From Candidatus Kaiserbacteria bacterium RIFCSPHIGHO2_01_FULL_54_36 (GTDB lineage Bacteria; Patescibacteriota; Minisyncoccia; Phycocordibacterales; UBA2100), in assembly GCA_001781105.1 (NCBI GenBank), contig MFKV01000028.1, forward strand, positions 10,428 to 74,427: a stretch of DNA of 64,000 nt, read 5' to 3'. Below are positions 4,633 through 62,104 of this stretch, piece after piece. A model generated the notes under the pieces. It was not told where the DNA came from. It did not search any database and worked only from the letters and a program-made list of their open reading frames with translations. The first letter of the stretch is position 1. The number at the start of each line of letters is the position of its first letter. Made by a program: the position numbers and the translations under genes.

Positions 4633-4641
4633 ATCACGAGG

Positions 4642-7298: not shown

Positions 7299-7329
7299 GC
7301 GCTTAGTGTATCACAATCGCCTCAACTAT

Positions 7330-8256
7330 CTATATACCTAGGAAATTCTTCAGGGCTTGCGCGATTCCGTCCCAGAAACCTCTTGGCTGCGGGCTTGCGC
7401 TAGGAGTGGGGGCTGGCCCGCCGAATGTATTGAAATCCGGATTAGTATAGAACGATGCTTGGTTTGCCGTTCCACCCGCGGGCCCACTTTGGCCTGCCCC
7501 CTGTGCTTGGAGCGCGACCATTTCCTGTGTTGGATATAGTACGGGCCGCTCGGTCTCACCAGATTGCAACGTTGCACTCGAATTGCTAAAAACATTCCCC
7601 ACAGCCTCTGATGCTGATTTTGCCACATCTTGTATCACTCTCCCCACGGCAAACCAGCTGAACGGAGACTTCGGGGCTTCGGTGGTTGTTGTATCCTCAG
7701 TCGTTTCGTCGGTGATAGGCACAAGTGTGGTGTCCAGCAGATTGCTGATCAGCGTACTGCCGAGCGAGCTCGGGCAAGGCTTTCCATCGGGACCAAGGGC
7801 ATTGGGATCGCTCTCCCCGCTAAAGGCGCTAGATCTGGTAGATCCAGATGCGGGACAGGGCTCGGTTTTCGGCTGCTCTGGCGGTTTCTCGTCTTTTTTT
7901 GGCTCAGGCATTTTCGGCATCTCGGGTGGTTTGCCTCCGCCTGGCGGCTCCCCCTTGCAGATGTTTGGCCCCTTACACTTACCAGGTGTCTCATGCCCAT
8001 TGGTAAAATCCGGACACGAACAGTCGAGTCCCCCTTTCTTTTTTGTTTTGGGATTTATCTTATCGCAGGGATAAGTGTAGTCTTTGTCGGGTGTGCATTT
8101 GGCGTCCGCTTCTTTCGCAACCGCAAGCTGGCTCGAGCGAGATGCCGTAGACATGCTCAGTGAGCCAATTGTAAAGCTCACCACGAATACCGCGGCGAGC
8201 GCGATAGCGCTTGAGGATGTAAACCGGAAGGCCTTCTTCTTCCTCCGCGATGCCAT
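7330..8256 (-). CDS. Hypothetical membrane-anchored, Cys- and Pro/Lys-rich low-complexity protein
   Basis: 308-aa ORF with an N-terminal hydrophobic anchor, a Cys cluster (CTPDKDYTYPCDK...CSCPDF...CKGPNIC) and PEPKK-type repeats. No family recognised. Confidence 0.55.
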   Translation of the reverse strand: MASRRKKKAFRFTSSSAIALAAVFVVSFTIGSLSMSTASRSSQLAVAKEADAKCTPDKDYTYPCDKINPKTKKKGGLDCSCPDFTNGHETPGKCKGPNICKGEPPGGGKPPEMPKMPEPKKDEKPPEQPKTEPCPASGSTRSSAFSGESDPNALGPDGKPCPSSLGSTLISNLLDTTLVPITDETTEDTTTTEAPKSPFSWFAVGRVIQDVAKSASEAVGNVFSNSSATLQSGETERPVLYPTQEMVALQAQGAGQSGPAGGTANQASFYTNPDFNTFGGPAPTPSASPQPRGFWDGIAQALKNFLGI

Positions 8257-8430
8257 ACCGCAATTCTACCACGCAAAATTGCGCTCCTTCCGTATTTTCC
8301 CAACCCCCAAGCGAGGCGCTCAGTGGGCCTGGAGCAAGGCCCCTCGCAGCCGCGACGGCGGCGAGAGGAGCAGATCCGCCAGCAGGCGGATACGCGTGTC
8401 TTGCGAGAGGCCCACTGAGCGCCGAGCGCC

Positions 8431-10522: not shown

Positions 10523-10563
10523 GAATTTGATTGTTTCCTCGCGCCGTGATAGTCTCTACCTCA

Positions 10564-10797
10564 ATGGTTTTGCTCCAGCAGATGCTGCCCTACGTGCAGA
10601 TCGGCCTTTCGGTCCTTCTCATTGTTGCGGTCCTTTTGCAGCGCACGGGTGCCTCGCTGGGGGGAGCTTTTGGAGCCGACAATTTCTCGTCCGGTTTCCA
10701 TACCCGCCGCGGATTGGAGCGTACGCTCTTCCACGCGACGATCCTTCTTGGTATACTGTTTGCACTATCGGCACTGGTTAGTCTTCTTATTAGTTAA
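10564..10797 (+). CDS. secG: Preprotein translocase subunit SecG
   Basis: MLPYVQIGLSVLLIVAVLLQRTGASLGGAFGA... matches the SecG signature LLQ..G.GLGGAFG. The start is ambiguous (10564 or 10582); the track's 10531 is a TTG inside the promoter. Confidence 0.75.
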   Translation: MVLLQQMLPYVQIGLSVLLIVAVLLQRTGASLGGAFGADNFSSGFHTRRGLERTLFHATILLGILFALSALVSLLIS

Positions 10798-14803: not shown

Positions 14804-14989
14804 ATGACGTTCCGACATGGAAAAGATTTACCGTTTCCCAGAATGGTCCGTCTAGGTCGCCTCTTAAAGGGCGCGGGACCTGACATGGTGCAAGGTGTCG
14901 CAAAAGAATACCTCAAGGCTGAGCGGGAAATCAGCAAAAAAGTTCGAAAGGCCAACGAGGCCTTTCGCAAGAAGAAGAACTCTAAGTGA
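14804..14989 (+). CDS. Small basic hypothetical protein (61 aa)
   Basis: GGAGGA sits 8 nt upstream of the ATG, and a clean terminator hairpin follows. Lys-rich C-terminus. Confidence 0.5.
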   Translation: MTFRHGKDLPFPRMVRLGRLLKGAGPDMVQGVAKEYLKAEREISKKVRKANEAFRKKKNSK

Positions 14990-21922: not shown

Positions 21923-22393
21923 CTATTGGATCACAATAGGAATCGAAACAGAATCGTCGTTCTCGGGCATTCCCGATGGATTGTCCCGCAAAAGCACTAC
22001 CGTCGCCGGACCGGAATAATTCTCGATAGTGATCACCGACGTAAATGTGACTTGCTCTGTGGTCATCCACTCTCCTTGCGCCTGTGCAATGCCGTTGCCG
22101 ATGAAATCATTGTCGCCATCGACGATCTTGATCGGGAACGATGCTTCAAAGAACCACGGTCCGGGTGCGCTTCCTGAAACGACTAACGTCTTCCCGACTG
22201 TTGCATTGGCCTTTGGAGAAGTGACTATGACGCGAGCAGACAGTGGCTGATCGGGATCGGGTGTAGTGGTCGGGGATGTTGATGTGGCAGTCGGTGCCTC
22301 GACTGGTGATGGTACGGCAAAGAGCACCCACGCAAGGGCAATGATTACTGCAGTGAGAAGCAGTATGATACCCCACCATCCGCGCGTGCTCAT
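21923..22393 (-). CDS. Membrane-anchored Ig-like (Gmad2/GerM-like) domain protein
   Basis: MSTRGWWGIILLLTAV anchor followed by a beta-rich domain. Start trimmed to avoid overlap with the yvcK homologue. Confidence 0.5.
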   Translation of the reverse strand: MSTRGWWGIILLLTAVIIALAWVLFAVPSPVEAPTATSTSPTTTPDPDQPLSARVIVTSPKANATVGKTLVVSGSAPGPWFFEASFPIKIVDGDNDFIGNGIAQAQGEWMTTEQVTFTSVITIENYSGPATVVLLRDNPSGMPENDDSVSIPIVIQ

Positions 22394-22403
22394 ACGGTAT
22401 AGT

Positions 22404-23360
22404 CTACAACTCTGAGATGATCTTCGCAATTTTCTCAGAATCGTGCCGAGCGATGTCGGCTTCAAAGAAAAAGTCGCCAGTAATAACGTGTTCTGCACAG
22501 TCCTTCAGCGCCGAGTCGCAGAGCATCGGATATTTCTTTTCTTTTTCGTAGGATGCAAGGAGTGCCTTGGGGATGGCTTGAGTATTGCAGATGACATGAT
22601 CAAACTTCTCAAGACCACTGTAGATTAGAAGCTCTTTCATCATGTCAGAGCACGAAAAGCCATGAGTTTCTCCCCACTTGGTCATCAAATTACACACCGC
22701 GATCTTCTTTCCTTTGCTTTCTCGCAGCGCTTCCCTCATGCCTTCGACGCACAGTGTCGGAATGAGCGAAGAGTAGAGATCGCCGGGGCCTATAACGATC
22801 AGATCGGCAGCGCGAATGGCGCTTTCAGTTTCCTCATAGATGCGCGCGGGCGGATCGAGGAAGACTTTTTTGATGCGAAGAGTCGCATCATGTTTAGGGA
22901 TATCGATATTCGTCTCTCCCACGATCTCCGTGCCATCTTCGAGGATCGCATGTACGTGCGATTTATCAAGCGACACCGGCAATACCGTGCCTTTGATGTT
23001 GAGGAGCTCCGAAGCTTTGCGTATACCTTCTATCTCGCCTCCGTAGATGGAAGAAAGTGCTGCAAGAAAGAGGTTGCCAAAACTGTGCCCGTGCAAAGTG
23101 CTTCCACCGTTGTTGAATCGGTAGTTGAAAAGTTCACGCAAGATCTCCGCTTGGCCCTCGTCTGCAAGCGCCAAGAGGCCGCGGCGCACATCTCCTGGCG
23201 GCAAAATACCGAATTCGTCACGCAGCACTCCTGCGGATCCGCCGGAATCGAATGAAGTAAAAACGGCCGTGATATCGAGGGGGAACTCTTTAAGCCCGCG
23301 CAAGAGGGTGTAGCCGCCACTTCCCCCTCCGATGCGTACGATCCTTTTCATGCGCGTCAT
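22404..23360 (-). CDS. YvcK/CofD family protein (gluconeogenesis factor / 2-phospho-L-lactate transferase-like, UPF0052)
   Basis: RIVRIGGGSGG N-terminal motif, LPPGDVRR, and overall YvcK similarity. Confidence 0.85.
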   Translation of the reverse strand: MTRMKRIVRIGGGSGGYTLLRGLKEFPLDITAVFTSFDSGGSAGVLRDEFGILPPGDVRRGLLALADEGQAEILRELFNYRFNNGGSTLHGHSFGNLFLAALSSIYGGEIEGIRKASELLNIKGTVLPVSLDKSHVHAILEDGTEIVGETNIDIPKHDATLRIKKVFLDPPARIYEETESAIRAADLIVIGPGDLYSSLIPTLCVEGMREALRESKGKKIAVCNLMTKWGETHGFSCSDMMKELLIYSGLEKFDHVICNTQAIPKALLASYEKEKKYPMLCDSALKDCAEHVITGDFFFEADIARHDSEKIAKIISEL

Positions 23361-23475: not shown

Positions 23476-24045
23476 TTATACCCGCACACCAAATTTTGCT
23501 AGCTCCTTCTTCACCGCCGCAAGCGGCAAGCCAGCCACATTATTGGAATCCCCCACGATGCTTGCTATCAGCTTCTCGCCTTTCCCTTGGATAGCATATC
23601 CGCCAGCATTTTTCAGCGACTCTCCTGTTCTCACGTACGCTACGATCTCGGTCGGTGAGAGTTTCCGCATTTTCACGCGGGTGGCGACCGTCTTCGTGAA
23701 CGTTCGGCCCGTTTTTGAATCGACGATCGCAAATCCGGTAATGAGCGTATGAGTTTTACCACTTAATGCAGTCAACATCTGTATGGCGCGCGCTTTGCCA
23801 TGCGGCTTGCCCAGCAGTTTGCCGCGAAATACCGCAAACGTGTCTGCTCCGAGAACGACGGCGTCTTGATGCTGCTTCGCGACCATGAGTGCTTTCCCCA
23901 GCGCCAAGTGCCTTGCAAGCGCGGGAGGCGGGAGCGGCAAGCCCATGTGTTCCTCATACCCGCTTTCCTGTACCTCAAACTCGATGCCGCTCTTTGCAAG
24001 GATCTTCTTGCGCCAGGGCGAGGCAGAGGCGAGGATGAGTTTCAT
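23476..24045 (-). CDS. maf: Maf-like nucleoside triphosphate pyrophosphatase
   Basis: LILASASPWRKKIL...GADT...GKP. Classic Maf. Confidence 0.9.
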   Translation of the reverse strand: MKLILASASPWRKKILAKSGIEFEVQESGYEEHMGLPLPPPALARHLALGKALMVAKQHQDAVVLGADTFAVFRGKLLGKPHGKARAIQMLTALSGKTHTLITGFAIVDSKTGRTFTKTVATRVKMRKLSPTEIVAYVRTGESLKNAGGYAIQGKGEKLIASIVGDSNNVAGLPLAAVKKELAKFGVRV

Positions 24046-24094
24046 TTGCGCACACTATTGCACACTGCCGCTTATACTGCTAGCATTGCCCTAC

Positions 24095-24235
24095 ACACCC
24101 CATACGTATCAAGAGTGCGGTGAGAGTTCTGGCTCTACGACCCGCCGGCAACTTGCTCGAGAATGTTGAAGAAGCCCTTCGACAAGCTCAGGGTAAAGTG
24201 CCCCATCCAGCCCTCACGGGAAGATGCTTTTGTCG
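24095..24235 (+). ncRNA. SAM-I (S-box) riboswitch aptamer
   Basis: TATCAAGAGTGCGGTGAGAGTTCTGGCTC...CCCGCCGGCAAC...AGTGCCCCATCCAGC...GGAAGATG aligns with the SAM-I consensus UAUCAAGAG.GGCGGAGGGACUGGCCC...CCCGGCAACC...GGUGCCAAUUCC...GAAAGAUG. It lies directly upstream of metK. Confidence 0.75.
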
Positions 24236-25374: not shown

Positions 25375-27216
25375 CTATTCGACAGTAACGGATTTTGCGA
25401 GGTTGCGCGGGCGATCCACGTTGAGACCCTTTTCTTTCGCGAAATAGTACGCGAAAAGCTGCAAGGGCACGATGTTGAGAATGGGAGCGAGCATTTCAAG
25501 CGTACTCGGGACAAACAACACATCATTCACAAGCTTTCCGATCTCTGTGTCTCCTTCGGTCGCAAGCGCAATGACAGGGCCTTTGCGTGCCTTTATTTCG
25601 TGAATGTTGGATACATTCTTTTCATACACGCTGTCTTGGGGCACGATCGCGAATGTTGGAAAGTGCTCGTCTATCATCGCGATGGGGCCATGCTTCATCT
25701 CCCCGGCTCCATATCCTTCCGCGTGGATATATGAAATTTCTTTCAATTTCAGTGCGCCTTCGAATGCTACGGGATAGTTGTACTTGCGCCCGATAAAAAT
25801 AAAGTCCCGCACTCCCGCGTACTTCTTCGCAATTTTCTCAATCTTCTGTTTCGTGTCGAGTATGTGCTGTACTTTATTCGGCAATTCTTTGAGCGCGAGC
25901 GCGATTTCCTTAGCGGTCTTCTCCGACATCCCGCCCTGGCCGGGCAGGCGCTGCCGCCCTAGGAATATCGTAAGGAGCACCAGCGCGGCGAGCTCTGAAA
26001 TAAGTGCTTTCGTAGAGGCGACGCTTACTTCCGGCCCTGCGTGATTGTAGACTCCGGCATCGGTCTCACGAGCAATCGTACTACCGACGGCGTTGACGAT
26101 ACCGAGCGTGAGCGCGCCTCTGCGTTTCCCTTCTCGTACCGCTTCGAGCGTATCGAGAGTCTCTCCTGATTGTGAGATAGCGATGAGGGCAGTCCTTTGA
26201 TTCAAAACGGGAGAGCGATAGCGAAATTCGCTCGCATGCTCTACCTCGACTGGAATACCTGCGAATTCCTCGAGCATGTACTCACCGATGAGACCGGCGA
26301 TATGGGCCGATCCGCACGCCACAATGATGATGCGTTCTATCTGTGCGAGTTCTGTGGCGACACTTTCAAGCCCTCCGAGTTTCACCATTCCTTTCTCGGC
26401 AATTAATCGCCCGCGAAGGGTATTTTCGATCACATCTGGACCCTCCATTATTTCCTTGAGCATGAAGTGCTCATAGCCACCCTTTTGTGCTTCCTCGGCA
26501 TTCCAATCGATCTCGGTAGCGATGCGATTCACTTTCGTCGCATCAAGCTTGGTGATGCTGTGGCCATCGGGTGTAATGATAGCGACCTCGCCATCTTCGA
26601 GAAAAACCACCTTTTTCGTATGCGGCAAGATCGGCGAAGGGTCCGACGCGATAAAATGTTCGCCATCGCCAAGACCGAGCACTATTGGGCTGCCCATACG
26701 CGCGGCGATTATTTTGTCAGGCTCGCCCTTGTACTGAAGCGCGATTCCATAGGTGCCGCGCACTTCGTTGAGCGCCATGAGCGCGGCTTTTTCAAAATCC
26801 TTGGTTTTCTTTAAGTGCTCCTCCACAAGGTGCGGGAGAACTTCTGTATCGGAGTCAGATAGAAACGTATGTCCTTGGACGACCAGCTTTGCCTTCAATT
26901 CTTTGAAATTCTCGATAATACCGTTGTGCACGACCCATATTTCGCCATCGCCGCTTGCATGCGGGTGCGCGTTCTTCTCCGTAGGCTCGCCGTGCGTTGC
27001 CCAGCGTAGATGCGCGATGCCACTTTTGCCGGTAAAGCTTGCTGGCATTTTCTTGCGCAGTTCTGCGACCGCCCCCGGAGTTTTAATACTGCCGGATTCC
27101 GGTGTATAGATGCCGGCTGAATCGTAGCCGCGATACTCGAGCGAGAGCAGTCCATCGAGAAGAACGCCCCCGGCGTCTTTCCCGTTTTTTCCTGTATAGG
27201 CAAAAATGCCACACAT
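25375..27216 (-). CDS. glmS: Glutamine--fructose-6-phosphate aminotransferase
   Basis: MCGIFAY N-terminal nucleophile and two SIS domains. 613 aa. Confidence 0.97.
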   Translation of the reverse strand: MCGIFAYTGKNGKDAGGVLLDGLLSLEYRGYDSAGIYTPESGSIKTPGAVAELRKKMPASFTGKSGIAHLRWATHGEPTEKNAHPHASGDGEIWVVHNGIIENFKELKAKLVVQGHTFLSDSDTEVLPHLVEEHLKKTKDFEKAALMALNEVRGTYGIALQYKGEPDKIIAARMGSPIVLGLGDGEHFIASDPSPILPHTKKVVFLEDGEVAIITPDGHSITKLDATKVNRIATEIDWNAEEAQKGGYEHFMLKEIMEGPDVIENTLRGRLIAEKGMVKLGGLESVATELAQIERIIIVACGSAHIAGLIGEYMLEEFAGIPVEVEHASEFRYRSPVLNQRTALIAISQSGETLDTLEAVREGKRRGALTLGIVNAVGSTIARETDAGVYNHAGPEVSVASTKALISELAALVLLTIFLGRQRLPGQGGMSEKTAKEIALALKELPNKVQHILDTKQKIEKIAKKYAGVRDFIFIGRKYNYPVAFEGALKLKEISYIHAEGYGAGEMKHGPIAMIDEHFPTFAIVPQDSVYEKNVSNIHEIKARKGPVIALATEGDTEIGKLVNDVLFVPSTLEMLAPILNIVPLQLFAYYFAKEKGLNVDRPRNLAKSVTVE

Positions 27217-27322
27217 CGGGCCACTTTATCACGCCTAGCGAGGATTCGAAATGCAAGCTTGTTTGCATTTCGTCCGAGCGACGGCGCGATACGATACCTA
27301 GTAGCACGTTTGCCCCGAAAAA

Positions 27323-28303: not shown

Positions 28304-29366
28304 CCGGGTAGGCTTCTTTGATTTCTTTTGCGAGGTATGGGTTCCACATGGCGCCGGTAGCGGTCATGACGAGGTCGGCGCCGGCGTCGCGGTACTCTTT
28401 GAAATCTTCTGGCACCGTGACTCCTCCGCTCCCTACGATCGCGTATTGCATGCCGAATTCTTTGCGCAGTGCGCTGAGGCGGCGTGTCATGTCGAGCCCT
28501 GCCCACTTCACCGCATGTCCGCAGATGCCGCTCTTTACGCGGTGTGCACCGGGAAGCGCTTGCGAGCCATCAGGGTTCACGACAGGCGCGGGGATGGTGT
28601 TGATGGCAGCAAACCCGTCCACGACGGTGCCGACTTCTTTTACTAATTCGCGCAATTCATTTTCTCCAAAATACGCGATTTTGATAAGAAGCTTGGTGTC
28701 GCCGATCTGATCTTTTATCGCGCTCGTGATGAGCCTTATTTTCGGCACATCGAAGCAAAGGAGCGATGCGGCGCCTTCGTTGGGGCAAGAAAAATTCGTC
28801 TCGACTATTTTGACGCCTGTGTCCTTGATCATTCTAGCGCCCTGTACCCAATCATTGACGTAGTCATCGTGTGAAAATCCTTCCCACTTGGTGCCTTCGA
28901 AGCTGCAAACGACGAGCTGCCCTGGCTTTGCGTAGGCGACGCAATCGCGCAGATCTTTCATCCAGATCTCTGGATCATACGATGGATTGCCGAATGAATT
29001 GGTTATCGAAAGTGGCTCTTTGTATTCGTTGCGCACCACGATCGGCTCGTTTGCCTTTTCGAGCGTGAGATCGCCTTCGATATCGGCGCCCAAGACGTTG
29101 GGCCATTCGTTGCTCGCGCGCACACGGCTGCGCACTGTCTTGTGTATCGGCACATTGAAACTCTTATCGAGCGCCGCTTTGACGAACTTTGCATTGAGAA
29201 GCGGCCCTGCGGGAATGCCGATCGGATACTCGAGTTTCTCACCCAAGAATTCAAACCGCGGTTCGCCGAGGGGCACGACGACGCCATCCTCAAAGCCATT
29301 GAAAGGGCCTTCCTCCCAATTTTCCGAGTAGGTCTTATTGGGGTCGAAAAAAGGCGCCTGGAGCAT
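28296..29366 (-). CDS. Dihydroorotate dehydrogenase-like (DHOD family, PF01180-like) TIM-barrel protein
   Basis: IGIPAGPL, NFSCPN and SGGV motifs. Start set at MLQAPFFDP (29366), which is preceded by GGGGTATACT-N6-ATG. Confidence 0.7.
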   Translation of the reverse strand: MLQAPFFDPNKTYSENWEEGPFNGFEDGVVVPLGEPRFEFLGEKLEYPIGIPAGPLLNAKFVKAALDKSFNVPIHKTVRSRVRASNEWPNVLGADIEGDLTLEKANEPIVVRNEYKEPLSITNSFGNPSYDPEIWMKDLRDCVAYAKPGQLVVCSFEGTKWEGFSHDDYVNDWVQGARMIKDTGVKIVETNFSCPNEGAASLLCFDVPKIRLITSAIKDQIGDTKLLIKIAYFGENELRELVKEVGTVVDGFAAINTIPAPVVNPDGSQALPGAHRVKSGICGHAVKWAGLDMTRRLSALRKEFGMQYAIVGSGGVTVPEDFKEYRDAGADLVMTATGAMWNPYLAKEIKEAYPDA

Positions 29367-29373
29367 GCGCACA

Positions 29374-29415
29374 GTATACCCCATGAGATATATTCCTATC
29401 TCATGGGGTATACCC
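29374..29415. promoter_or_regulatory. Perfect 17-bp inverted repeat GTATACCCCATGAGATA-N6-TATCTCATGGGGTATAC
   Basis: Seen directly, between the GGDEF gene stop and the DHOD-like gene start. Its right arm provides the TATACT element 6 nt before the DHOD-like ATG. Confidence 0.6.
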
Positions 29416-29421
29416 CCGTGC

Positions 29422-30033
29422 CTACAAAAATTCGACTCTATTGCGACCTTTCGCCTTTGCCGAATGCATGAGAGCATCGTCCGCGCGTTTAATGGCGCTC
29501 TCGAAGGTGTCCTCCTCATTGACCAACGTCACGCCAAAACTCATGGTGAGTGAGGTATTTTCAATTGCAATGCCGAGTTCTTCGATGTCCTTCCGCAGAC
29601 TTTCTGCTATTCTCACAATTTGATCCTTGTCGCCGTCGATGATGCAGATGGCGAATTCTTCTCCTCCCCATCTCCCAACCAAGTCTTGAGGTCGTAGGTT
29701 CGTGCGTAGCGTCGAAGCAACCTTTTGCAGAGCTTTATCGCCCGCCGTATGGCCCTGAGTATCATTGAGCACCTTGAAGTGATCGATATCGCACATCATG
29801 ATCCCGATCTGCTTTTCTGGATCGCTAGCACGTCCACCTATTCGCATGCCTTCAATAATGTCGCTGGCTCGCTTCTCGAACTCGCGGCGGTTTGAGAGGC
29901 CAGTCAGCGCATCGCTGGTTGCCAGCTGTTCAAACTCTTTTGCCTTGCGGTACGTCGCCTCACGCGCATCAAGCTTTTGCTTTTTTGCCTCCTGCGCATC
30001 AAGCGATGCAGGACGATGGGATCCTTCTACCAT
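29422..30033 (-). CDS. GGDEF-domain diguanylate cyclase (stand-alone, coiled-coil N-terminus)
   Basis: RWGGEEF active-site motif, DHFK and the conserved GGDEF core. Confidence 0.85.
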   Translation of the reverse strand: MVEGSHRPASLDAQEAKKQKLDAREATYRKAKEFEQLATSDALTGLSNRREFEKRASDIIEGMRIGGRASDPEKQIGIMMCDIDHFKVLNDTQGHTAGDKALQKVASTLRTNLRPQDLVGRWGGEEFAICIIDGDKDQIVRIAESLRKDIEELGIAIENTSLTMSFGVTLVNEEDTFESAIKRADDALMHSAKAKGRNRVEFL

Positions 30034-30092
30034 CTTGCAAGTATACCCCTTACCGCCGTTAGCAAAGGCGGCAAGGGGTATCGCCTTACGCG

Positions 30093-30864: not shown

Positions 30865-31425
30865 CTATCCTCCGATCTGCCACTTCGAGATGAATTCGAG
30901 TGGATAGATAAGATTGATGACATTGAGCGCCAGGTTGTCGCGGATCATATAGAGTACAAAGAGCTCGAGGCCTACTCCCAGCGCGATCGTGCTCCACAGA
31001 GGCGCTCTCCACGCGAGCACGAAGCCCAATAGCATCGCAAACGTGTCGGAGAGCGAATTGAGGATGCTATCGCCTATGTAGCCCTGCGCGAGCGCTTGCT
31101 GCCTGTAGTGATCAATAACGACCGGCGTATTCTCGACTATCTCCCACGCGATCTCAATACCTAGGGCAAGCAAGAGCCGCATCCCCACAGAGAGGCGCGG
31201 GAAGAAGTACCACAAGCCCAGGTAAAAGAGGAGACCATGGATAATGTGCGAGAAGGTATACCAGTCCATCAAGTGCTGTGAATTGCCGCTGCTCAGTACG
31301 ACTCCTTCCCAGAGCTTCACATATCCACACGTGCATATCGTCGGCTGGCCCATCAAGTAGAGCACCAGCGCTTGTGCGGCTATGAGCAGCGCCCCGACCC
31401 ACATATCCCGTCTGGATAATTGCAT
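30865..31425 (-). CDS. DUF2585-like multi-pass membrane protein
   Basis: 186 aa with 5-6 TM helices. Family call is tentative. Confidence 0.55.
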   Translation of the reverse strand: MQLSRRDMWVGALLIAAQALVLYLMGQPTICTCGYVKLWEGVVLSSGNSQHLMDWYTFSHIIHGLLFYLGLWYFFPRLSVGMRLLLALGIEIAWEIVENTPVVIDHYRQQALAQGYIGDSILNSLSDTFAMLLGFVLAWRAPLWSTIALGVGLELFVLYMIRDNLALNVINLIYPLEFISKWQIGG

Positions 31426-31475
31426 GCAACGTATTCTATCTTATAATTTAAAGACTATTCGCTAACAATCTTCTC

Positions 31476-32688: not shown

Positions 32689-33648
32689 TTACAGCCACTG
32701 CCCGATGCCCGCAGAGCAAGCAGCATCGAGTGCCGCCGTGTCGTCGGCGCTCAAGACAAGCGTGTCGCTTCGGTTGATCTCATACATGATCGCTTCCGGA
32801 TCTGCCACATGCCCGATGCCGAATGCATGGCCGAACTCGTGCGCGAGTACGCGTACGAGCTCGGTGCGACTCGAATACTCATAGATATCGATCCGCTGCT
32901 CCCCTGCACGGCTTTCGTACGTCCCTTCTTCAAATTCCTTCCCCGCTGACGCTCCGGCCTGATTGTATTTCTCGACGTTGAGATTGAGCTCTGCAATGAG
33001 CTTATTGAGCGACGCTCCGAGCGCGTTTAGGGTATCGATATCGGCATTCACTTTCGCCTGCGCCGCTTTGATCGCTTGTACCTGTCCTTGGAGCGCGGCT
33101 TTCTCTTCCTGCAGACGATCATAGGTCGCAGGTGGCGCACCACCTTTGCGATTCCATTTCTCCACCTCCGCATTGTATGCAGCTTCGCGCGCTTCATAGG
33201 TAGCAATGTTTTTCTGGAGCGCCGCTTTCTCCGCACTGATGCTTCTTTCCATTCTCTCGTATTGCGCCTTGAGGGATTCGTACGACGAGAGGCTCCTTGT
33301 GATCTGTATGCCAGAGGCTTTCATCTTGTCGGTCGCTTGCTGGCGATAGTCATAGACAAGGTTGACGGTAACGGCTCCGCCCGAGGCTGCGTATGCAAAG
33401 AGGTCTCTGCCGGATGGCTGCTCCCAAATAGTTTCCGCTTCTTTGAGGCGCGCGATGAGCGTGCTCGTCCCCATGCCGAATTGTGGATCTATCGCGCCGA
33501 GGCTATAGGTAATGGGGCTGCGGCACGGCAAGAATTTCGCTTCGATCTGCCGCGCCGCGACCATCACCTCTGTTTGGTGCAAGTAGCCAAAATATGCCGC
33601 CCCTCCGAGCAGCAACGCCCAAATGAGAAAATCTATCGCTCGCCGCAT
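32689..33648 (-). CDS. Membrane-anchored zinc metalloprotease (matrixin/M10-like HEXXHXXGXXH) with coiled-coil region
   Basis: HEFGHAFGIGHV zinc-binding motif near the C-terminus, an N-terminal TM helix and a long coiled coil. Confidence 0.7.
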   Translation of the reverse strand: MRRAIDFLIWALLLGGAAYFGYLHQTEVMVAARQIEAKFLPCRSPITYSLGAIDPQFGMGTSTLIARLKEAETIWEQPSGRDLFAYAASGGAVTVNLVYDYRQQATDKMKASGIQITRSLSSYESLKAQYERMERSISAEKAALQKNIATYEAREAAYNAEVEKWNRKGGAPPATYDRLQEEKAALQGQVQAIKAAQAKVNADIDTLNALGASLNKLIAELNLNVEKYNQAGASAGKEFEEGTYESRAGEQRIDIYEYSSRTELVRVLAHEFGHAFGIGHVADPEAIMYEINRSDTLVLSADDTAALDAACSAGIGQWL

Positions 33649-33840
33649 CCGATATAGTGTATCAAACTTACTTTCTCACCTGTTGCTTTTGCTTCTCGAT
33701 CTTTTTGATCCCGCGGTTTTTGTGCACCGGCTGCAGCCGTGCGGCCTGCCAGCGCATTGTCCCCGTACCTTTTTTGATGGGGTTTTTCATGCCGTATCAG
33801 TCTATAGACTGTGCATGTATCGGCCATGAACTCTGAAATC

Positions 33841-34279: not shown

Positions 34280-34615
34280 CTATTGTTTCTTTTTACTCTT
34301 TGTAATGTGTCTCCCCAGGCGATCAAAGCTCCCCTGCCAAAAGGCTGCCTGTGATGTGAGCCAGGTGCTGTATTCCCTGAACGCCTTTTGGTTGAGTACA
34401 CAGATGCGCACGCGTCCGCGCTTGTGCGAGGAAATGATGCCCACATCCTCAAGAATGCGCGCGTGCTTCAGCGCTGCCGGAAGCGAGATTGCAAACGGTT
34501 CGGCCATTTTCGAAAGCGACATAGCGCCGCCATGGTGCAGCCGCTCGACCATGCGCCGCCTCACCGACTGGCACACCTCCTCCCATCCGCGCTCCACATC
34601 CCTATACTTAACCAT
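34280..34615 (-). CDS. ArsR/SmtB family transcriptional regulator
   Basis: HTH region LSKMAEPFAISLPAALKHARILEDVGII. Forms a classic ArsR-SRPBCC pair. Confidence 0.8.
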   Translation of the reverse strand: MVKYRDVERGWEEVCQSVRRRMVERLHHGGAMSLSKMAEPFAISLPAALKHARILEDVGIISSHKRGRVRICVLNQKAFREYSTWLTSQAAFWQGSFDRLGRHITKSKKKQ

Positions 34616-34630
34616 GGGTTAAGTATAGGG
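34600..34630. promoter_or_regulatory. 30-bp perfect palindrome CCCTATACTTAACCATGGGTTAAGTATAGGG overlapping the ArsR start codon
   Basis: Seen directly. Centred on CCATGG, which contains the ATG. Candidate autoregulatory operator. Confidence 0.6.
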
Positions 34631-34689: not shown

Positions 34690-35160
34690 CTATCGGATAC
34701 TGAGGATCACTACTGGCTCTACCGGGCGATCGGAGCCAGTGGTCTCCACGTCTTGAATAGCGTTCACGACGTCCATGCCTTGTATAACTTTGCCGAAGAC
34801 CGTGTGCTTGGCATCGAGGAAATTGTTGGGGGCGGTGTTGATGAAAAATTGGCTTCCATTGGTATTGGGCCCGGAATTCGCCATCGCTATCGTGCCGACG
34901 TCATTTCTGTTCTGCCCATGTATCTCGTCTTCAAATTTATACCCAGGGCCACCTGTCCCCCACCTGGCCATAAGTGCATCGTCTTTGGTCTGCGGATCGC
35001 CGCCCTGGATCATAAAGCCCTTGATGACGCGGTGGAATTTGGTGCCGTCATAAAATCCCTCTTTCGCGAGCTTCACAAAGTTCTCGGTAGTCTTCGGCGC
35101 ATCAGCAACCATCAGCTCCAGCTCAATATCTCCCTTATTTGTTTTCAAAGTAATTTGCAT
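34690..35160 (-). CDS. ppiB: Peptidyl-prolyl cis-trans isomerase, cyclophilin type
   Basis: FHRVIKGFMIQGGDP and FFI motifs. Confidence 0.93.
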   Translation of the reverse strand: MQITLKTNKGDIELELMVADAPKTTENFVKLAKEGFYDGTKFHRVIKGFMIQGGDPQTKDDALMARWGTGGPGYKFEDEIHGQNRNDVGTIAMANSGPNTNGSQFFINTAPNNFLDAKHTVFGKVIQGMDVVNAIQDVETTGSDRPVEPVVILSIR

Positions 35161-35177
35161 CGGGGCAGTATATCAAA

Positions 35178-36147: not shown

Positions 36148-36167
36148 TCAAACAGCAGTCGGGAGAT

Positions 36168-37841: not shown

Positions 37842-38673
37842 TAACCAGATCCTTATACCTTTTCACAGAAAGATCAAGGTAGTTCTTTTCAAGGTCGATT
37901 CCGATAAACTTCCTACCGTGCGCTGCAGCTGCTAACCCCGTTGTTGAGCTGCCGGCAAACGGGTCGAGAACAATATCGTCTTTTCTTGTACTAGCGAGGA
38001 CAATTCGTCTTAAAAGCTCCAGGGGTTTCTGGGTCGGATGTTTTCCAAATTTCTTCTCTCCAGGTTTAGGGGTTCCAATGGACCACACGGAGCGCATTTG
38101 CAGACCTGGTTTCTTTAGAAAATCTCTGCCCCAATCTCCCGCTTTCATCAGATCATAATCGAAATGATGCTTTGCTTTCTTTTCCTTTCTCGCCCAAATC
38201 AGAGTCTCATGACTCGCCGTAAAGAATCGGCAGCTCAAATTTGGCGACGCATTCGGCTTGAACCACGAGATGTCATTAAGGATGTGGTAGTTGAGCGATT
38301 GCAGGGCGTGTCCGCATTGGTAAATGGAATGATACGTTCCGCTTACCCAGAGCGTTCCGTGCGGTTTGAGGACTCGTCTGCAGGCTTCGAGCCATCGGTA
38401 GTGAAAGTCATAATCGTCCTCAAACCCCTTACTCTTGTCCCAATCTCCCTTATTCACACTTACCATCTTTCCTGCGTGTACCGAGAAGCCACCATTCGAA
38501 AGATTGTACGGCGGATCCGCAAAAATCATGTCGATAGAATTTTCAGGAAGCGAACTGAGCAAATCTATCGAGTCGGCATTGTAGAGAACAAAGTTGTCCT
38601 GTTTGAAATAGGGCTTGAACTCGACAGACGCGAGGATTTTCTGTCTTGGTTTCTGAAAGGTTACGAGCGCCAT
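37825..38673 (-). CDS. Beta-class amino DNA methyltransferase (N6-adenine or N4-cytosine; DPPY motif IV precedes motif I FAGSSTTG)
   Basis: IFADPPYN and LDPFAGSSTTGLAA. Start set at MALVTF (38673), which is preceded by TATAAT-N7-ATG. The track start at 38706 lies inside that promoter. Confidence 0.85.
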   Translation of the reverse strand: MALVTFQKPRQKILASVEFKPYFKQDNFVLYNADSIDLLSSLPENSIDMIFADPPYNLSNGGFSVHAGKMVSVNKGDWDKSKGFEDDYDFHYRWLEACRRVLKPHGTLWVSGTYHSIYQCGHALQSLNYHILNDISWFKPNASPNLSCRFFTASHETLIWARKEKKAKHHFDYDLMKAGDWGRDFLKKPGLQMRSVWSIGTPKPGEKKFGKHPTQKPLELLRRIVLASTRKDDIVLDPFAGSSTTGLAAAAHGRKFIGIDLEKNYLDLSVKRYKDLVNVAKY

Positions 38674-38813
38674 GTGGATTATTATACCCCACGCGCGGTT
38701 GCTCATTTTGGGGAATCGGGGCCGTATTGCGGGGGTGGAGTGCGGGTGCCATAGTTGGGGTCGAAACTTAACCCAGCTCTTTGAGGTGGAAAGAGCTCTA
38801 CTTGGAGGCTACA

Positions 38814-41024: not shown

Positions 41025-41297
41025 CTATTGCAGTCTTTTGCAAAACACTAGTATAGATTCTGCGCGCGGTGTCAGTTTGTGACGGACAGCGCTTCCCTGG
41101 TTCCGTTTAAAAACGAGGCCGGCGATTGCCAGTTTGCGTACGTGATCCGAAGCATTTTCATATCCTATTTTTAGACGCTGTGAAATATCTTCGACCGACA
41201 GTTCAGGTTCTCGTTTTAACAAATCGAGGATTTGCAGACGCCGATGATTCGCAAATCCTTTGACTATTCGTTCCAGCTGTCTGTATGTAGCTGCCAT
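41025..41297 (-). CDS. ArsR-family HTH transcriptional regulator (about 90 aa)
   Basis: FANHRRLQILDLL...SVEDISQRLKIGYENASDHVRKLAIAGLV. Start at MAATYRQ; the track start is a TTG inside a repeated motif. Confidence 0.7.
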   Translation of the reverse strand: MAATYRQLERIVKGFANHRRLQILDLLKREPELSVEDISQRLKIGYENASDHVRKLAIAGLVFKRNQGSAVRHKLTPRAESILVFCKRLQ

Positions 41298-41353
41298 AGA
41301 TCGATTGTACTCTATTGCAGTCTTTTGCAAAACACTAGCATAGGAATAAAGAT

Positions 41354-41660: not shown

Positions 41661-42737
41661 TTAGGCTGTCCCGAAGCGGCGGCGGTCGTAGAGTAGCGAG
41701 AGAAATGCGAGTACTGCGAATATGGTGGGGATCCAGTAGCCAGGCAGGTAGAGCTGCGCCATTTCCCACAGGCTGATCCACTGTATCGAGACAGAGCCCG
41801 TCACGGTCGCGACGTTATCCAGAAGCGCCTGATCCTGCGTCTTCACCGCCTTCTGCCAATCTTCGGCGTACTTGATATTGGCATCCGCGTTCTTTAGCTG
41901 TGCCGAATACGATGCGTTCTCGTTGCTGAGACGCGCTCTTAGTGTGATCACCTCATTGGTGAGCGCCTGGATCTGTGCTTGCACCTCTACAGTCTGGGGC
42001 TGTGCGCGAAGTGAAGTGAGCTGCTGCTCGTCGGCGTTGATCTGGGATTGGAGCGACTGCGCGGCACTCGTGTGCGCACTGACTATTTTTTGGCGTGCCG
42101 CTTTGTAATCCGCGAGTGTCGAGTCTGCTTGCTTCTGCTGCTCCTCGATGCTCTGCTTTTGCGGCAAGAGATTCTGCGAAGAAATGTTGAGCGTAAGAAA
42201 GCGGCTATCTACCAGGCCCTCGAGCTCAGTGCGGAAGGCATCGTATTTGCTCATAGGGACCGCGAAATTGACGTAGCCGTATTTCGGCGAGCTCGATTCC
42301 TGATCGATGCGGCCGTCGTATCCGCGCACGGTCGTCTCGACACGACGCACTAATCCCCCCACATCGCGGGTGCGCATTTCGGCGTTGTAATTAACTTTCA
42401 AGAATTCTCGCGTGTCGGTGATGGGTACGTCTTGGCCCGGGTACGGGTAGGGATAATATGCTTCTCTCCCCGGCATGCCTTGCGGCGCCATGCTTGCTCC
42501 ATTGGTAGCACCCATGTCGTACATGGGTTTAGAAGGCATGGAGGGTGGCGAATAGCTGACGGAATCCTCCACTACGCCTCGTGAGCCACCGCCTTCCCCG
42601 TAACCCATAGGCATCGGGTAATACGAAGAAGGGCGCGCGATCGCTACAAAGGAGCCGAGGGCAAGGAGCACAAGGACGATCGTCAGCCATGAGATACGGC
42701 GCGGCCAAAAGCGAGCGCGGACTATTTCATCGGTCAT
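41661..42737 (-). CDS. DUF4349-like membrane protein (N- and C-terminal TM helices, Gln-rich coiled coil)
   Basis: 358-aa ORF. Family call is tentative. Confidence 0.55.
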   Translation of the reverse strand: MTDEIVRARFWPRRISWLTIVLVLLALGSFVAIARPSSYYPMPMGYGEGGGSRGVVEDSVSYSPPSMPSKPMYDMGATNGASMAPQGMPGREAYYPYPYPGQDVPITDTREFLKVNYNAEMRTRDVGGLVRRVETTVRGYDGRIDQESSSPKYGYVNFAVPMSKYDAFRTELEGLVDSRFLTLNISSQNLLPQKQSIEEQQKQADSTLADYKAARQKIVSAHTSAAQSLQSQINADEQQLTSLRAQPQTVEVQAQIQALTNEVITLRARLSNENASYSAQLKNADANIKYAEDWQKAVKTQDQALLDNVATVTGSVSIQWISLWEMAQLYLPGYWIPTIFAVLAFLSLLYDRRRFGTA

Positions 42738-42770
42738 ACCAAGATGCTATCACGGAAACAGAGACAAGGC

Positions 42771-42884
42771 CTACCATTTGTAGCCCTTCTTTTCGAGCAT
42801 CACGCGCTTCGCCTCCAGCCGCTTTTTCGTCTTTCTTGAGCGTGTCTTTTTTCTCCTGATGTCCTGATCCGGTCTTTTTCCCAT
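42771..42884 (-). CDS. Possible 37-aa highly basic peptide
   Basis: Own translation: MGKRPDQDIRRKKTRSRKTKKRLEAKRVMLEKKGYKW. The ATG is preceded by GGGGTATACT-N6. Confidence 0.3.
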   Translation of the reverse strand: MGKRPDQDIRRKKTRSRKTKKRLEAKRVMLEKKGYKW

Positions 42885-42953
42885 CGGGGTAGTATACCCC
42901 ATGAGATGAAGCAAGCTATTCCCAGGGGTATACCCTATTACTTCGCTGCATCC

Positions 42954-44395: not shown

Positions 44396-44791
44396 TCACT
44401 TTTGTTCAAGGTCCAGACAAACGGAATTGATGCAGTAGCGCTTGCCTGTGGATGTCGGGCCGTCGTCGAACACGTGGCCCAAGTGCCCGCCACAACGCGC
44501 GCACGTGATCTCTGTGCGCACCATTCCGCGATCCGTGTCGCGATGCTGCTCTATGGCGCCGGGAAGTGCTGTATCAAAAGAGGGCCAGCCGGTACCAGAA
44601 TCGAATTTTGCCTCCGACGAGAAAAGCGGATTGCCGCACGCCTTACACTCATAGGTGCCATCGGCTTTTTCGTGTACGTACTCGCCCGTGAACGGTGCTT
44701 CCGTTCCCTTCTCCCGAAGCACGGCGTATTCTTCGGGCGTAAGCGCTTGCTTCCACCCTTCCTCATTCTCGGGCATAGGACGTTTCGTCAT
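44396..44791 (-). CDS. msrB: Peptide-methionine (R)-S-oxide reductase
   Basis: CxxC...CxxC zinc site and the RYCINS catalytic motif. Confidence 0.92.
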
Positions 44792-44814
44792 GCCGCGATT
44801 GTAGCACGGGCGAT

Positions 44815-46617
44815 TTATTGCCGTCTGGCCCGAGAGCGATCGATGTCGGTCAGCTGCTGCTTGCGCAATCGAACGCTTGTAGGAGTTATTTCCAAATACT
44901 CATCTTCTGCCATCACTTCAAGCCCGCGCTCGATCGTGAGCGTAAAGGGTGGGATGAGATTGATCGCTTCGTCGGCGCCACTCGAGCGCATGTTGGTGAG
45001 CTGCTTGCCTTTGGTCGGGTTCACGGTCATCTCTTCACCTTTCGAGGTGTTGCCGATGACCTGGCCTTCATACACATCAACGGCAGGGCCGATATATATG
45101 ACACCGCGCTCCTGCAAATTCCAGAGCGAGAATCCGAGCGCCTTTCCGCTTGCCATCGAGATCATGGAGCCCACGTTCTTGCGGCGTATCTCGCCGACGT
45201 GCGGCTTGAAGCCCACAAAGCGCGAAGAAAGGATCCCCTCGCCCGAGGTGTCGAGCACGAATTGGCTGCGGTAACCGAGAAGCCCGCGTGTTGGCCCTTC
45301 GAAGATGAGCCTCACTTGGTTCTCATGGACTTTCAGATCTTTCATTATGAATTTGCGTGTGCCGAGACGCTCGATGATGGCACCTTGGTACACTTGTGGC
45401 GTGTCCACGATCACCTCTTCAAAGGGCTCCTGCATTTCCCCATTCTCCTCGTGGAAGATGACCTGTGGCTGCGAGACCTGCATTTCATATCCTTCACGGC
45501 GCATGTTCTCGAGGAGTATCGCAATGTGGAGCTCGCCGCGGCCTGAGACCTTGAAGGTATCGCCGCCGGAGAAATCCACGCGCAATCCGACGTTGACCTC
45601 GAGCTCACGCTCGAGCCTGTCGCGGATCTGCCGCGACGTCACGAATTTGCCTTCGCGGCCGGCGAAGGGAGAATTGTTGACGAGGAAGTTGAGCGTGATG
45701 GTGGGCTCATCGATCGCTATCGCGGGAAGCGCTTCGGTACTTTCATCGGTCGTAATAGTCTCGCCGATATAGATCTCCGGAATGCCCGCGATCATCGCGA
45801 TATCGCCAGCGGAGACTTCACTCGATTCGATCTTCTTGAGTCCTCTGAACGTGAACATCTTCGTGATCTTTCCAGTATGCGTCTCGACCTGGCCGGTCAG
45901 GCCGTCTACCTTTTTGACGAATACCGCATCTCCCGTCTTGAGAGTGCCTTCGTAGCAGCGCACGATCGCAAGGCGCCCGAGAAAGTTGTCGTAGCCGAGG
46001 TTAAAGGGCTGGAGCCGCGCAGGCTTCGTGAGCGCCTCCGGGCTTGAGGCGGGTGGGACGTGGCTCAGTATCGTCTCCAACAGCGGCGTGAGATCTGCCG
46101 ATTCGTCGGTGAGTTTGAGCTTCGCTATCCCCTGCCTGCCGATAGAGTAGACAATAGGAAAATCGGCCTGCTCATCAGAAGCGCCCAATTCCAAGAAAAG
46201 TTCGAGTACCTGTTCTTCCGTGCGCGCAGGATCTGCCGCAGGCTTATCGATCTTGTTGATGACAACTATTGGCTTTATGCCCAACTCCAGTGATTTTTTT
46301 AGCACGAAGCGTGTCTGCGGCATGGGGCCTTCTTGGGCGTCGACGACAAGCAATACCGAATCGATCGAGCGCAGTACTCGCTCCACTTCGCTCCCGAAGT
46401 CGGCGTGGCCGGGAGTGTCGACGATGTTGATCTTGGTATCCTGATAGAAAATCGCTGCGTTCTTGGAGTAAATGGTGATGCCCCGCTCAAGTTCGAGCGC
46501 ATTACTATCCATGGATACACCCTCTTCGGCTACTCCCGTTTGTCGTAAAAGCGCGTCTGTCAGCGTCGTCTTCCCATGATCAACATGGGCAATAATAGCT
46601 ATGTTCCTGATTTCCAT
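44815..46617 (-). CDS. typA: Translational GTPase TypA/BipA
   Basis: [18 protein letters not shown] and NKID G-motifs. 600 aa with the BipA C-terminal domain. Confidence 0.95.
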
Positions 46618-46620
46618 ATG

Positions 46621-46713
46621 TTAAAAAGTACCACCTACAGAGTGGGCGACCTGCCCCGTTAGAACGCGTATTCGCGTTTCTAATGGGGTGATCGCAATGT
46701 TCCGTATCTCCAT
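46621..46713 (-). CDS. 30-codon upstream ORF (leader-peptide candidate) mimicking the typA N-terminus
   Basis: Own translation: [30 protein letters not shown]. Its first 8 residues are identical to the typA start, and its stop lies 3 nt before the typA ATG. Confidence 0.4.
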   Translation of the reverse strand: MEIRNIAITPLETRIRVLTGQVAHSVGGTF

Positions 46714-57118: not shown

Positions 57119-57147
57119 GAGCCATTATACTCTCACGAGCGAAAAAG

Positions 57148-59322: not shown

Positions 59323-59458
59323 ACGAACTACTTTACCATGCCGCGTGAAATCGAATGCAATTCAAGGCGTGGGGAAAGCGGCGCACGAGCCGTACGAAAG
59401 TACGGTGAGTGCGCCGCGGGGGCCCCACAACGACGAAGTGCGTCGATTTCACGCGGCG

Positions 59459-62057: not shown

Positions 62058-62104
62058 TCAAAGAGTATAGCAAAGGGGAGCACGTGCGTGCTCCCGCTCG
62101 CCAT

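Follow-up and report, generated by a model that had tools for sequence, protein, structure and literature searches.

Bacteria of the candidate phyla radiation (CPR) make up a large and almost wholly uncultured diversity with reduced ribosomes, and their start codons are annotated by programs tuned to the Shine-Dalgarno (SD) sequence. Sigma-70 promoters with an extended −10 element (TGn) work without a −35 element, as in the galP1 type of Escherichia coli, and are common in Gram-positive bacteria. In the GeneMarkS-2 classification, group C is defined by a Pribnow box 6–8 nt from the start of first operon genes and includes 90% of Actinobacteria and 97% of Deinococcus-Thermus (PMC6028130). According to Tsurumaki et al. 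(2022; PMC9297842), just 48% of Parcubacteria have the anti-SD motif in their 16S rRNA. Here we analyze a 64-kb stretch of DNA, referred to as the window, from Candidatus Kaiserbacteria bacterium RIFCSPHIGHO2_01_FULL_54_36 (Parcubacteria, CPR; groundwater), in which a −10-like hexamer stands six nucleotides before the ATG of many genes. The arrangement has the geometry of group C and probably represents extended −10 promoters that give rise to leaderless mRNAs.

Copies of TATACT-N6-ATG in the window

Positions are numbered with the A of the ATG as +1, and Nk denotes k nt between the hexamer and the ATG. The window contains seven copies of TATACT-N6-ATG, all on the minus strand. A sequence-only reading of this DNA had suggested a genome-wide count of the pattern against shuffled expectation. 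Run in the window with 100 dinucleotide-preserving shuffles, such a count gave an expectation of 0.15 (standard deviation, 0.36), and no shuffle had as many as seven copies; the pattern is enriched. TATACT occurs 24 times window-wide; seven copies lie at N6 before an ATG, and every other spacing from N3 to N11 has zero or one. Each of the seven ATGs either begins a homology-supported gene or open reading frame (ORF) or lies in frame no more than 21 nt from such a start. The genes are a pyrD-like gene, a GGDEF gene, an ArsR-like HTH gene, a cyclophilin gene (the ppiB homologue), a 37-aa ORF, an EamA transporter gene, and the gene for a short release factor 2 (RF2). Of the seven promoters, only that of the HTH_20 gene has a good −35 element (TTGACG, 16-nt spacer). 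A terminator-like hairpin and then a T-rich tail lie directly upstream of the ppiB site.

Four of these sites, with ATGs at 29366, 35160, 42884, and 62057 on the minus strand, had been listed in the sequence-only reading as GGGGTATACTGTGCGCATG, TGATATACTGCCCCGATG, GGGGTATACTACCCCGATG, and TGCTATACTCTTTGAATG. All four are present, as is the TATAAT-N7-ATG that it placed at 38673 before a methyltransferase gene. The list was incomplete, leaving out 30033 (GGDEF), 34615 (HTH_20), and 53193 (EamA). The sequence quoted for the ppiB homologue is correct, and its coordinates (35161–35178) were 3 nt off the true span (35158–35175).

Placement at gene starts in the window and in relatives

Gene calls and Pfam labels for the window were pipeline calls on identical metagenome contigs (positions 2876–62329, 74 genes). 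RNA genes were identified with Rfam and ARAGORN and comprise RNase P RNA, three tRNAs, and a near-threshold SAM riboswitch before metK. Six 20-kb loci of other Kaiserbacteria-like genomes with gene calls were pooled with the window, giving 203 genes. The identity of these relatives to the window is ~80% for RF2 and 73–83% for the pyrD-like protein. In the window, the generalized hexamer TANNNT stands at N6 before 12 of 73 called ATG starts compared with 21 of 1985 other ATGs (odds ratio 18, p = 3e-10). Four of those 21 lie in frame with a called start and no more than 33 nt from it. With these four starts moved, TANNNT at N5–8 precedes 25 of the 74 window genes, with a sharp peak at N6. Across the pooled set it precedes 77 genes at N5–8 (N6, 50; N7, 15; N8, 8; N5, 4), compared with 12 of 203 at a control spacing of N17–20. 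The start codon is ATG in 198 of the 203 genes (97.5%).

The motif depends on gene arrangement. Only 3 of 36 coupled genes in the pooled set (same strand, gap of ≤8 nt) have it, compared with 56 of 134 genes that have a longer gap or are divergent (Fisher p = 1.2e-4). At same-strand gaps of 9–35 nt it is found in 16 of 26 genes.

A raw-sequence profile of TA[TC]A[AC]T-Nk-ATG was made without gene calls from hexamers that cannot be stop codons. It gave 11 occurrences at k = 6 in the window (background, 1.26) and 15 in 77 kb of Kaiserbacteria-like relatives (background, 1.0). In 137 kb of other Parcubacteria with short RF2 there were 14 at k = 6 and 16 at k = 7 (background, 4.8), and 1.7 Mb of non-CPR loci gave 48 at k = 6 over a background of 28.9, an excess of only 1.7-fold. 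A looser count (TANNNT or TA[CT]NNT before the ATG of ORFs of at least 60 codons) showed a weak excess at k = 6–7 even in cyanobacteria. It was too noisy and was therefore replaced by the strict hexamers and the counts based on gene calls. Taken together, the counts suggest that the leaderless layout is a genome-wide habit of this Kaiserbacteria organism and its relatives and covers about 40–60% of the genes that are not tightly coupled upstream. Roughly four genes in ten appear to carry a −10 box placed for an mRNA start exactly at the ATG.

Extended −10 features of the motif

An ATG-aligned logo of the N6 class, judged only at positions not used for site selection, has G−16 (56%), T−15 (56%), G−14 (66%), t−10 (42%), A−9 (76%), and a/c−8 (84%) around the selected T−12, A−11, and T−7. 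TG occurs at −15/−14 in 37 of the 77 sites (48%) compared with a dinucleotide background of 6.0% (p = 9e-25), and it precedes the hexamer in 1 of 12 cases at the control spacing. The commonest hexamers are TATACT, TACAAT, and TATAAT, and the spacer between the hexamer and the ATG is GC-rich. The base at −1 is not distinctive in motif sites. No conserved −35 element was found, the composition of the ATG-aligned sites being flat upstream of −17, and a scan for two-hexamer −35/−10 promoters was not enriched (15 found, 14.9 expected). The full pattern TGNTA[TC]A[ACT]T has 10 copies in the window, of which eight are intergenic and point at a gene. Five of the eight stand at N6–7; the other three, 26–68 nt before a start, would be leadered promoters of the usual kind. 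At four window sites a G-rich variant, GGGGTATAMT, takes the place of TGn. By its base preferences, the motif is the sigma-70 extended −10 consensus in canonical numbering, without a −35. No sigma factor gene lies in the window.

An upstream terminator-like hairpin was considered as a general companion of the motif and rejected. Such hairpins are striking at 29366, 30033, 62057, and several RF2 orthologues, yet they are not commoner than elsewhere: a hairpin (z below −2) is found upstream of 19% of motif genes and 16% of others (p = 0.36).

Occurrence before RNA genes and loss within operons

TANNNT, often with TGn, is found 8–16 nt before the mature 5′ end in ~15 of 27 tRNA and RNase P RNA genes of the window and its relatives (counted by eye). 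Because tRNA genes are untranslated, a hexamer in this position is not a ribosome-binding site, and the spacing leaves short 5′ leaders of the kind that RNase P removes. The metK gene (start 24322) has no hexamer at N5–8. It is preceded by a 276-nt region that contains a SAM riboswitch-like element (24103–24230, plus strand; 42.9 bits with a gathering score of 44.4, E = 2e-6). A terminator-like hairpin follows the aptamer, and a TATACT (24073–24078) lies ~25 nt before it. The metK gene of locus L173 has a clear SAM riboswitch (62 bits).

Orthologues that lie within operons have lost the hexamer. The pyrD-like gene is inside the pyr operon of locus L174, with a 2-nt gap, and there the −10 is gone and the N-terminus ML(Q/R) is kept. 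In L173, glmS follows another gene by 5 nt, and the −10 is absent; the glmS orthologue in L172 has tgcTAAAGTggctcgATG, with the hexamer TAAAGT.

Conservation before RF2 and other genes

The RF2 gene of the window (61158–62057, minus strand) encodes 299 aa, with a truncated N-terminal domain and no programmed frameshift site. Most RF2 homologues have 295–299 aa, and Kaiserbacteria share the short form with other Parcubacteria. Matches from other CPR and from non-CPR genomes align only from query residue 30–50 and have longer open frames upstream. The sequence TTTTGnTATACT-N6-ATG precedes RF2 in the window, L089, L090, L092, L095, L097/L098, L006, and L175. Orthologues retain it to ~58% identity, and forms with TATAAT-N7 extend the range to 55%. 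N7 variants occur in L099, L007, and L102, and in L094 and L108 the hexamer is more distant from the ATG, at N10. GC content in this series ranges over ~37–53%, and the six spacer bases vary among genomes. In several RF2 loci a hairpin and T-run terminator runs straight into TGn. The ends of short metagenome contigs with RF2 homologues are not at the ATG (genes begin at 100 and 49) and are ordinary random ends.

In L091 (9927–10003) and L096 (9924–10003), the RF2 ATG lies 1–3 nt after the 3′ end of tRNA-Thr and there is no −10 box. A near-leaderless RF2 mRNA could be produced in these genomes by tRNA 3′ processing, comparable to mitochondrial tRNA punctuation.

Other promoters are conserved as well. 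TATACT is kept before pyrD-like orthologues at N6 (L172) and N7 (L173), and the GGDEF orthologue in L173 has cTATACTagcctcATG at N6. For the IMPDH-family gene, the N5 spacing is common to four genomes (the window, L090, L091, and L174). CTP synthase orthologues have a −10 with TGn in L089 (TACTAT at N7) and L090 (TAAAGT at N6).

Start codons

The pipeline start of the pyrD-like gene (29384) gives a protein of 362 aa that begins MGYTVRM. The start at 29366, which the sequence-only reading had chosen for this gene (named DHOD-like there), gives 356 aa, the same as GenBank OGG49652.1. It fits the homologues too, nearly all of the 120 best having 356–358 aa and covering 98% of the 362-aa query. 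For the methyltransferase, the start at 38673 chosen in that reading is borne out by most homologue N-termini, which align at or within ~2 residues of that Met. The pipeline picked other starts for four genes (29384, 38706, 42902, and 44776), and its call for the 37-aa ORF is 43 aa from 42902 with the N-terminus MGYTTPM. The deposited proteins OGG49652.1, OGG49693.1, and OGG49662.1, exact matches that assign the window to this organism and are encoded on an 85.8-kb contig, start at the promoter-adjacent ATG; the last of these is the 156-aa product of the ppiB homologue. Two methyltransferase homologues begin MGYNxxM. Spurious MGYT and MGYN N-termini arise in unrelated proteins because the promoter, ATG-GGG-TAT-ACT/AAT, is read as codons. 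On this comparison, such N-termini are a recognizable annotation artifact.

SD signals and other lineages

SD sequences are not enriched in the pooled genes: a match of at least 5 nt at −20 to −4 was found in 7 of 203, compared with 9 and 6 in control windows. An SD-like match of at least 4 nt is present in only 7 of the 77 motif genes, and the spacer of 5–8 nt is too short for an SD. Strong AGGAGG-like sites precede only three window genes, with starts at 39775 (plus strand), 43476 (minus strand), and 62329 (minus strand). Genes without the motif show mild A-richness and T at −1 only.

Groups were compared with a crude longest-ORF method without gene calls, scoring SD-like matches at −20 to −4 and a −10 at N6–7. 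The method does detect SD in cyanobacterial loci (15% vs ~2% in controls) and Chloroflexi loci (11% vs 2–3%), where the −10 values are 3.7% (control, 6.4%) and 5.7% (control, 2.1%). SD values are 2.2% in Kaiserbacteria (control, 3–4%), 0.9% in other Parcubacteria (control, ~3%), and 3.3% in Peribacteria (control, 2–4%). The −10 at N6–7 reaches 14% (control, 2%), 17% (control, 8%), and 21% (control, 2%) in these three groups. All four Peribacteria loci (L008, L017, L057, and L065) show the −10 signal (19 of 90 long ORFs vs 2 in the control), and the leaderless layout may extend beyond Parcubacteria within CPR. The signal is not CPR-universal: L060 has SD without the −10, and L059 and L083 have neither (each a small sample).

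Interpretation and alternative explanations

In the proposed mechanism, the hexamer would act as the −10 element (at −12 to −7) of a housekeeping sigma-70-type extended −10 promoter (TGnTAnnnT). RNA polymerase would start on the A of the ATG at N6 sites, or within 1–2 nt of it at N5, N7, and N8 sites. The resulting mRNA would have neither a 5′ untranslated region nor an SD, and ribosomes presumably bind directly to the 5′-terminal AUG. The sequence-only reading had likewise proposed a −10-like box with transcription starting at or next to the start codon, and all sequence and comparison tests agree with a start set on the A of the ATG. Considering the motif, its enrichment and geometry, its limitation to uncoupled genes, its presence before RNA genes, its conservation, and the correct start codons that it marks, we find −35-independent extended −10 promoters yielding leaderless mRNAs to be the best and a likely reading, with transcription starts and translation mode deduced from sequence.

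Several points weigh against this reading. The key step, the transcription start site itself, is inferred. About 60% of genes have neither the motif nor an SD, so leaderless initiation is not the whole story. Judging by the control rate of 12 in 203, roughly one sixth of the 77 sites may be due to chance, and two window sites (4632 and 22393) borrow their TA from an upstream stop codon. Sites at N5, N7, and N8 may have leaders of 1–2 nt instead of none. The motif genes at gaps of 9–35 nt (16 of 26) would have promoters inside or abutting the upstream gene, and some of them may also be read through from upstream. Pipeline start calls may be biased toward upstream motifs; the raw-sequence profile is independent of such calls.

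The hexamer could instead act in a leadered mRNA as a non-SD ribosome-binding or enhancer element, as in GeneMarkS-2 group B (Bacteroidetes type). With SD unenriched in this lineage some other initiation signal must exist, and the frequent motif at gaps of 9–35 nt fits an RNA element. Group B, however, expects first and internal operon genes alike to carry the signal, whereas the motif is rare in coupled genes (3 of 36) and is lost where the same gene is operon-internal in a relative. TG at −15/−14 and A−11/T−7 are sigma-70 contacts with DNA, the motif precedes untranslated tRNA genes, and the terminator hairpin and T-run that abut TGn in several RF2 orthologues leave no room for a leader, all of which makes an RNA element distinctly unlikely. 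It is very improbable that the promoters are real and the adjacent ATG is not the start codon, with a downstream start, or an upstream start on another transcript, in use and the N6 geometry incidental. The differing pipeline starts at 29384, 38706, 42902, and 44776 are what such an arrangement would give, but homologue lengths and N-termini fit the N6/N7 ATG for RF2, the pyrD-like protein, and the methyltransferase. The three deposited proteins start at that ATG, the longer pipeline forms start with promoter sequence read as codons (MGYT/MGYN), and the sharp N6 peak would be left unexplained.

A further explanation concerns only the GGGGTATAC subset (29366, 30033, 42884, and 38673), in which a palindromic operator or repeat (GGGGTATACCCC, ATCTCAYGGGGTATAC) would be bound by a regulator and the likeness to a −10 would be secondary. 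A 16–17-nt unit does occur in inverted pairs at 29376–29415, at 42893–42935, and in L090 (44-nt spacer), and GGTATACC palindromes are found at six window sites, where a rough estimate for a random 8-mer gives about one. An operator is not exclusive of a promoter, though: the gene-proximal copy ends in TATACT or TATAAT at N6–N8, whereas the distal copy ends in TATACC. The promoters of the pyrD-like orthologues in L172 and L173 lack the palindrome and still have TATACT at N6/N7, and the subset is only 4 of 25 window sites, so we consider this explanation unlikely. Chance, a compositional artifact, or an echo of TAA and TAG stops upstream of starts would be in keeping with the two stop-derived sites (4632 and 22393) and with the weak k = 6–7 excess of a crude TANNNT count in unrelated taxa. 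It has next to no probability and is already refuted by the shuffles, none of which reached seven, by the profile of non-stop hexamers, which give the strongest peak, and by the co-occurrence of TGn with the hexamer; the motif is also conserved before orthologues.

Sites in the window

The exact TATACT-N6 sites, the methyltransferase site, and the further TANNNT sites at N5–8 are collected in Table 1. The Gmad2 site is probably real, since orthologues keep the hexamer (TATACT-N6 in L172 and TATAAT-N6 in L173). The DUF192 site is doubtful because its TAG is the stop codon of an upstream gene 9 nt away, and the site of the 48-aa ORF is doubtful because both hexamer and ORF are weak.

Table 1. 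Hexamer sites before start codons in the window (positions are those of the window; Nk, spacing between hexamer and ATG)
Gene or ORF	Span	Strand	Sequence	Spacing	TGn	Remarks
pyrD-like (PF01180)	29364..29381	−	gggTATACTgtgcgcATG	N6		−10, 6-nt spacer, and start codon; ATG 29366–29364
GGDEF gene	30031..30048	−	gggTATACTtgcaagATG	N6		ATG 30033
ArsR-like HTH_20 gene	34613..34630	−	cccTATACTtaacccATG	N6		ATG 34615
Peptidyl-prolyl isomerase (ppiB homologue, cyclophilin)	35158..35175	−	tgaTATACTgccccgATG	N6	TGn	ATG 35160; extended −10
Candidate 37-aa basic ORF	42882..42899	−	gggTATACTaccccgATG	N6		ATG 42884
EamA-family transporter	53191..53208	−	gtgTATACTgtaccgATG	N6		ATG 53193
Short RF2 (prfB, 299 aa)	62055..62072	−	tgcTATACTctttgaATG	N6	TGn	ATG 62057; extended −10
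N6/N4 DNA methyltransferase	38671..38689	−	gggTATAATaatccacATG	N7		start moves from 38706 (pipeline) to 38673
LemA gene	7296..7313	−	tgaTACACTaagcgcATG	N6	TGn	
308-aa gene	8254..8271	−	tggTAGAATtgcggtATG	N6	TGn	
secG	10547..10566	+	tgaTAGTCTctacctcaATG	N8	TGn	leader of 1–2 nt possible
maf	24043..24060	−	caaTAGTGTgcgcaaATG	N6		weak hexamer
glmS	27214..27231	−	tgaTAAAGTggcccgATG	N6	TGn	
DUF2585 gene	31423..31441	−	agaTAGAATacgttgcATG	N7		
M10 peptidase	33646..33664	−	tgaTACACTatatcggATG	N7	TGn	
40-aa ORF	33788..33807	−	ctaTAGACTgatacggcATG	N8		tentative
Small HTH gene	41295..41312	−	gagTACAATcgatctATG	N6		
DUF4349 gene	42735..42752	−	tgaTAGCATcttggtATG	N6	TGn	
msrB (SelR)	44789..44806	−	tgcTACAATcgcggcATG	N6	TGn	predicted start 44791, five codons upstream of pipeline 44776
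bipA	46615..46633	−	tggTACTTTttaacatATG	N7	TGn	
IMPDH-family gene	57116..57132	−	gagTATAATggctcATG	N5		
CTP synthase	59320..59338	−	tggTAAAGTagttcgtATG	N7	TGn	
Gmad2 gene	22391..22409	−	ttgTAGACTataccgtATG	N7		TAG doubles as stop codon of upstream gene
DUF192 gene	4630..4647	−	gagTAGCCTcgtgatATG	N6		doubtful
48-aa ORF	14826..14845	+	attTACCGTttcccagaATG	N8		doubtful

Just 15 nt separate the called starts of the divergent DUF1761 and Trp-repressor-like genes (5283–5335). An in-frame TACAAT-N7-ATG is found 36 nt downstream (5335) and points to a shorter Trp-repressor-like product.

Other elements in the window and in relatives

The inverted pair at 29376–29415 (minus strand) forms a perfect hairpin with a 16-bp stem, GGGGTATACCCCATGAGAT-aggaatat-ATCTCATGGGGTATAC (RNA fold −37 kcal/mol, z = −6.3), with the −10 box of the pyrD-like gene inside the 3′ arm. 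The same 16–17-nt unit, ATCTCAYGGGGTATAC(T/C), forms an inverted pair at the 42884 promoter (42893–42935) and lies between divergent HisKA and AI-2E genes in L090 (20086–20160). Possible roles for the unit are an operator, the mark of a regulon, or a subclass of G-rich promoter. In L174 (7139–7158), divergent start codons are only 20 nt apart, and on either strand the spacer palindrome CTAGTATACTAG reads TATACT-N7-ATG. The arrangement resembles a bidirectional leaderless promoter.

Identical 21-mers, aaattgTACTAGCCGGGTATG, end at the ATG of the RNase J gene (12856–12878, plus strand) and of a HAD hydrolase gene (16536–16558, minus strand). A similar block, attcTACTGACTGGGTATG, precedes a GH18 gene (48984–49003, minus strand). 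GCGGCAG lies further upstream of each of the three blocks, and their hexamer does not fit TANNNT. The aaattgTACTAGCCGGGTATG/attcTACTGACTGGGTATG block was not found in the relatives. A 27-nt repeat, CTAGTGTTTTGCAAAAGACTGCAATAG, is present on the minus strand at ~41030–41060 and 41315–41345, before a DUF8412 gene (start 41007) and the small HTH gene (start 41297). It is kept before a MarR-like gene in L173 (~3385–3430) and is probably an autoregulatory operator.

The region 35500–38710 has lower GC content, with 37–44% GC at every codon position of the gene at 36741–37418. It holds the N6/N4 DNA methyltransferase gene, a PDDEXK_11 nuclease-like gene, and hypothetical genes, and is likely a restriction-modification island. 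The methyltransferase gene nevertheless has a native-looking promoter, GGGGTATAAT-N7-ATG. An intergenic group I intron match (82 bits) was found in L089 (5621–5908), a Kaiserbacteria-like contig.

Implications

The leaderless reading, if true, offers a mechanistic answer to how CPR ribosomes that lack the anti-SD locate start codons and a concrete hypothesis for initiation in Parcubacteria that have been reported without the motif. Start-codon calls would then be systematically wrong across a large share of CPR metagenome annotation. The −10 box at −12 to −7 gives a simple, testable annotation rule for locating the start codon, and the rule fixes three to four starts in the window. The native promoters would be very compact (~15 bp, no −35) and could serve future genetic tools for CPR. 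A broader scenario is that Kaiserbacteria and, judging by small samples, some other Parcubacteria and Peribacteria largely gave up SD initiation. Extended −10 promoters that lack a −35 and are fused to the ATG would then make about half of their transcription units leaderless, and RF2 would be near-leaderless through tRNA 3′ processing in some relatives. We hold this scenario to be evenly balanced between true and false. A full-text search found no paper describing leaderless mRNAs in Patescibacteria, CPR, Saccharibacteria, or Parcubacteria; its coverage was incomplete, and the result is absence of evidence only.

Comparison with known systems

The promoters resemble known extended −10 promoters in having TG one base upstream of the hexamer (48% of sites), an unconserved −35, and a TAtAaT-like −10. 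Unlike the galP1 type, they are fused to the start codon. In archaea, leaderless transcripts (GeneMarkS-2 group D) likewise begin at or next to the start codon and are widespread in the genome. The archaeal box, however, lies 22–26 nt upstream, whereas composition is flat from −30 to −18 here and the element is a bacterial −10. The Parcubacteria of Tsurumaki et al. (2022) are SD-poor, in line with the lack of SD enrichment here; that paper does not propose leaderless mRNAs.

The closest likeness in layout is to group C, as known from Mycobacterium tuberculosis, M. smegmatis, Corynebacterium glutamicum, Streptomyces coelicolor, and Deinococcus deserti. The geometry and the TANNNT core are identical, and there is no SD between the box and the start. 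In both, a large share of transcription units is involved, the signal is largely missing from operon-internal (here, coupled) genes, and the box helps to pick start codons. In group C, however, the remaining genes carry an SD, whereas no SD enrichment is seen here. The lineage is also different (CPR/Parcubacteria), starts are almost all ATG (198 of 203), and transcription starts have been mapped in the known cases and are read from sequence alone here. The mechanism itself is thus not new and is the same in Actinobacteria and Deinococcus; the apparent novelty lies in the lineage and in the pairing of this mechanism with no detectable SD use.

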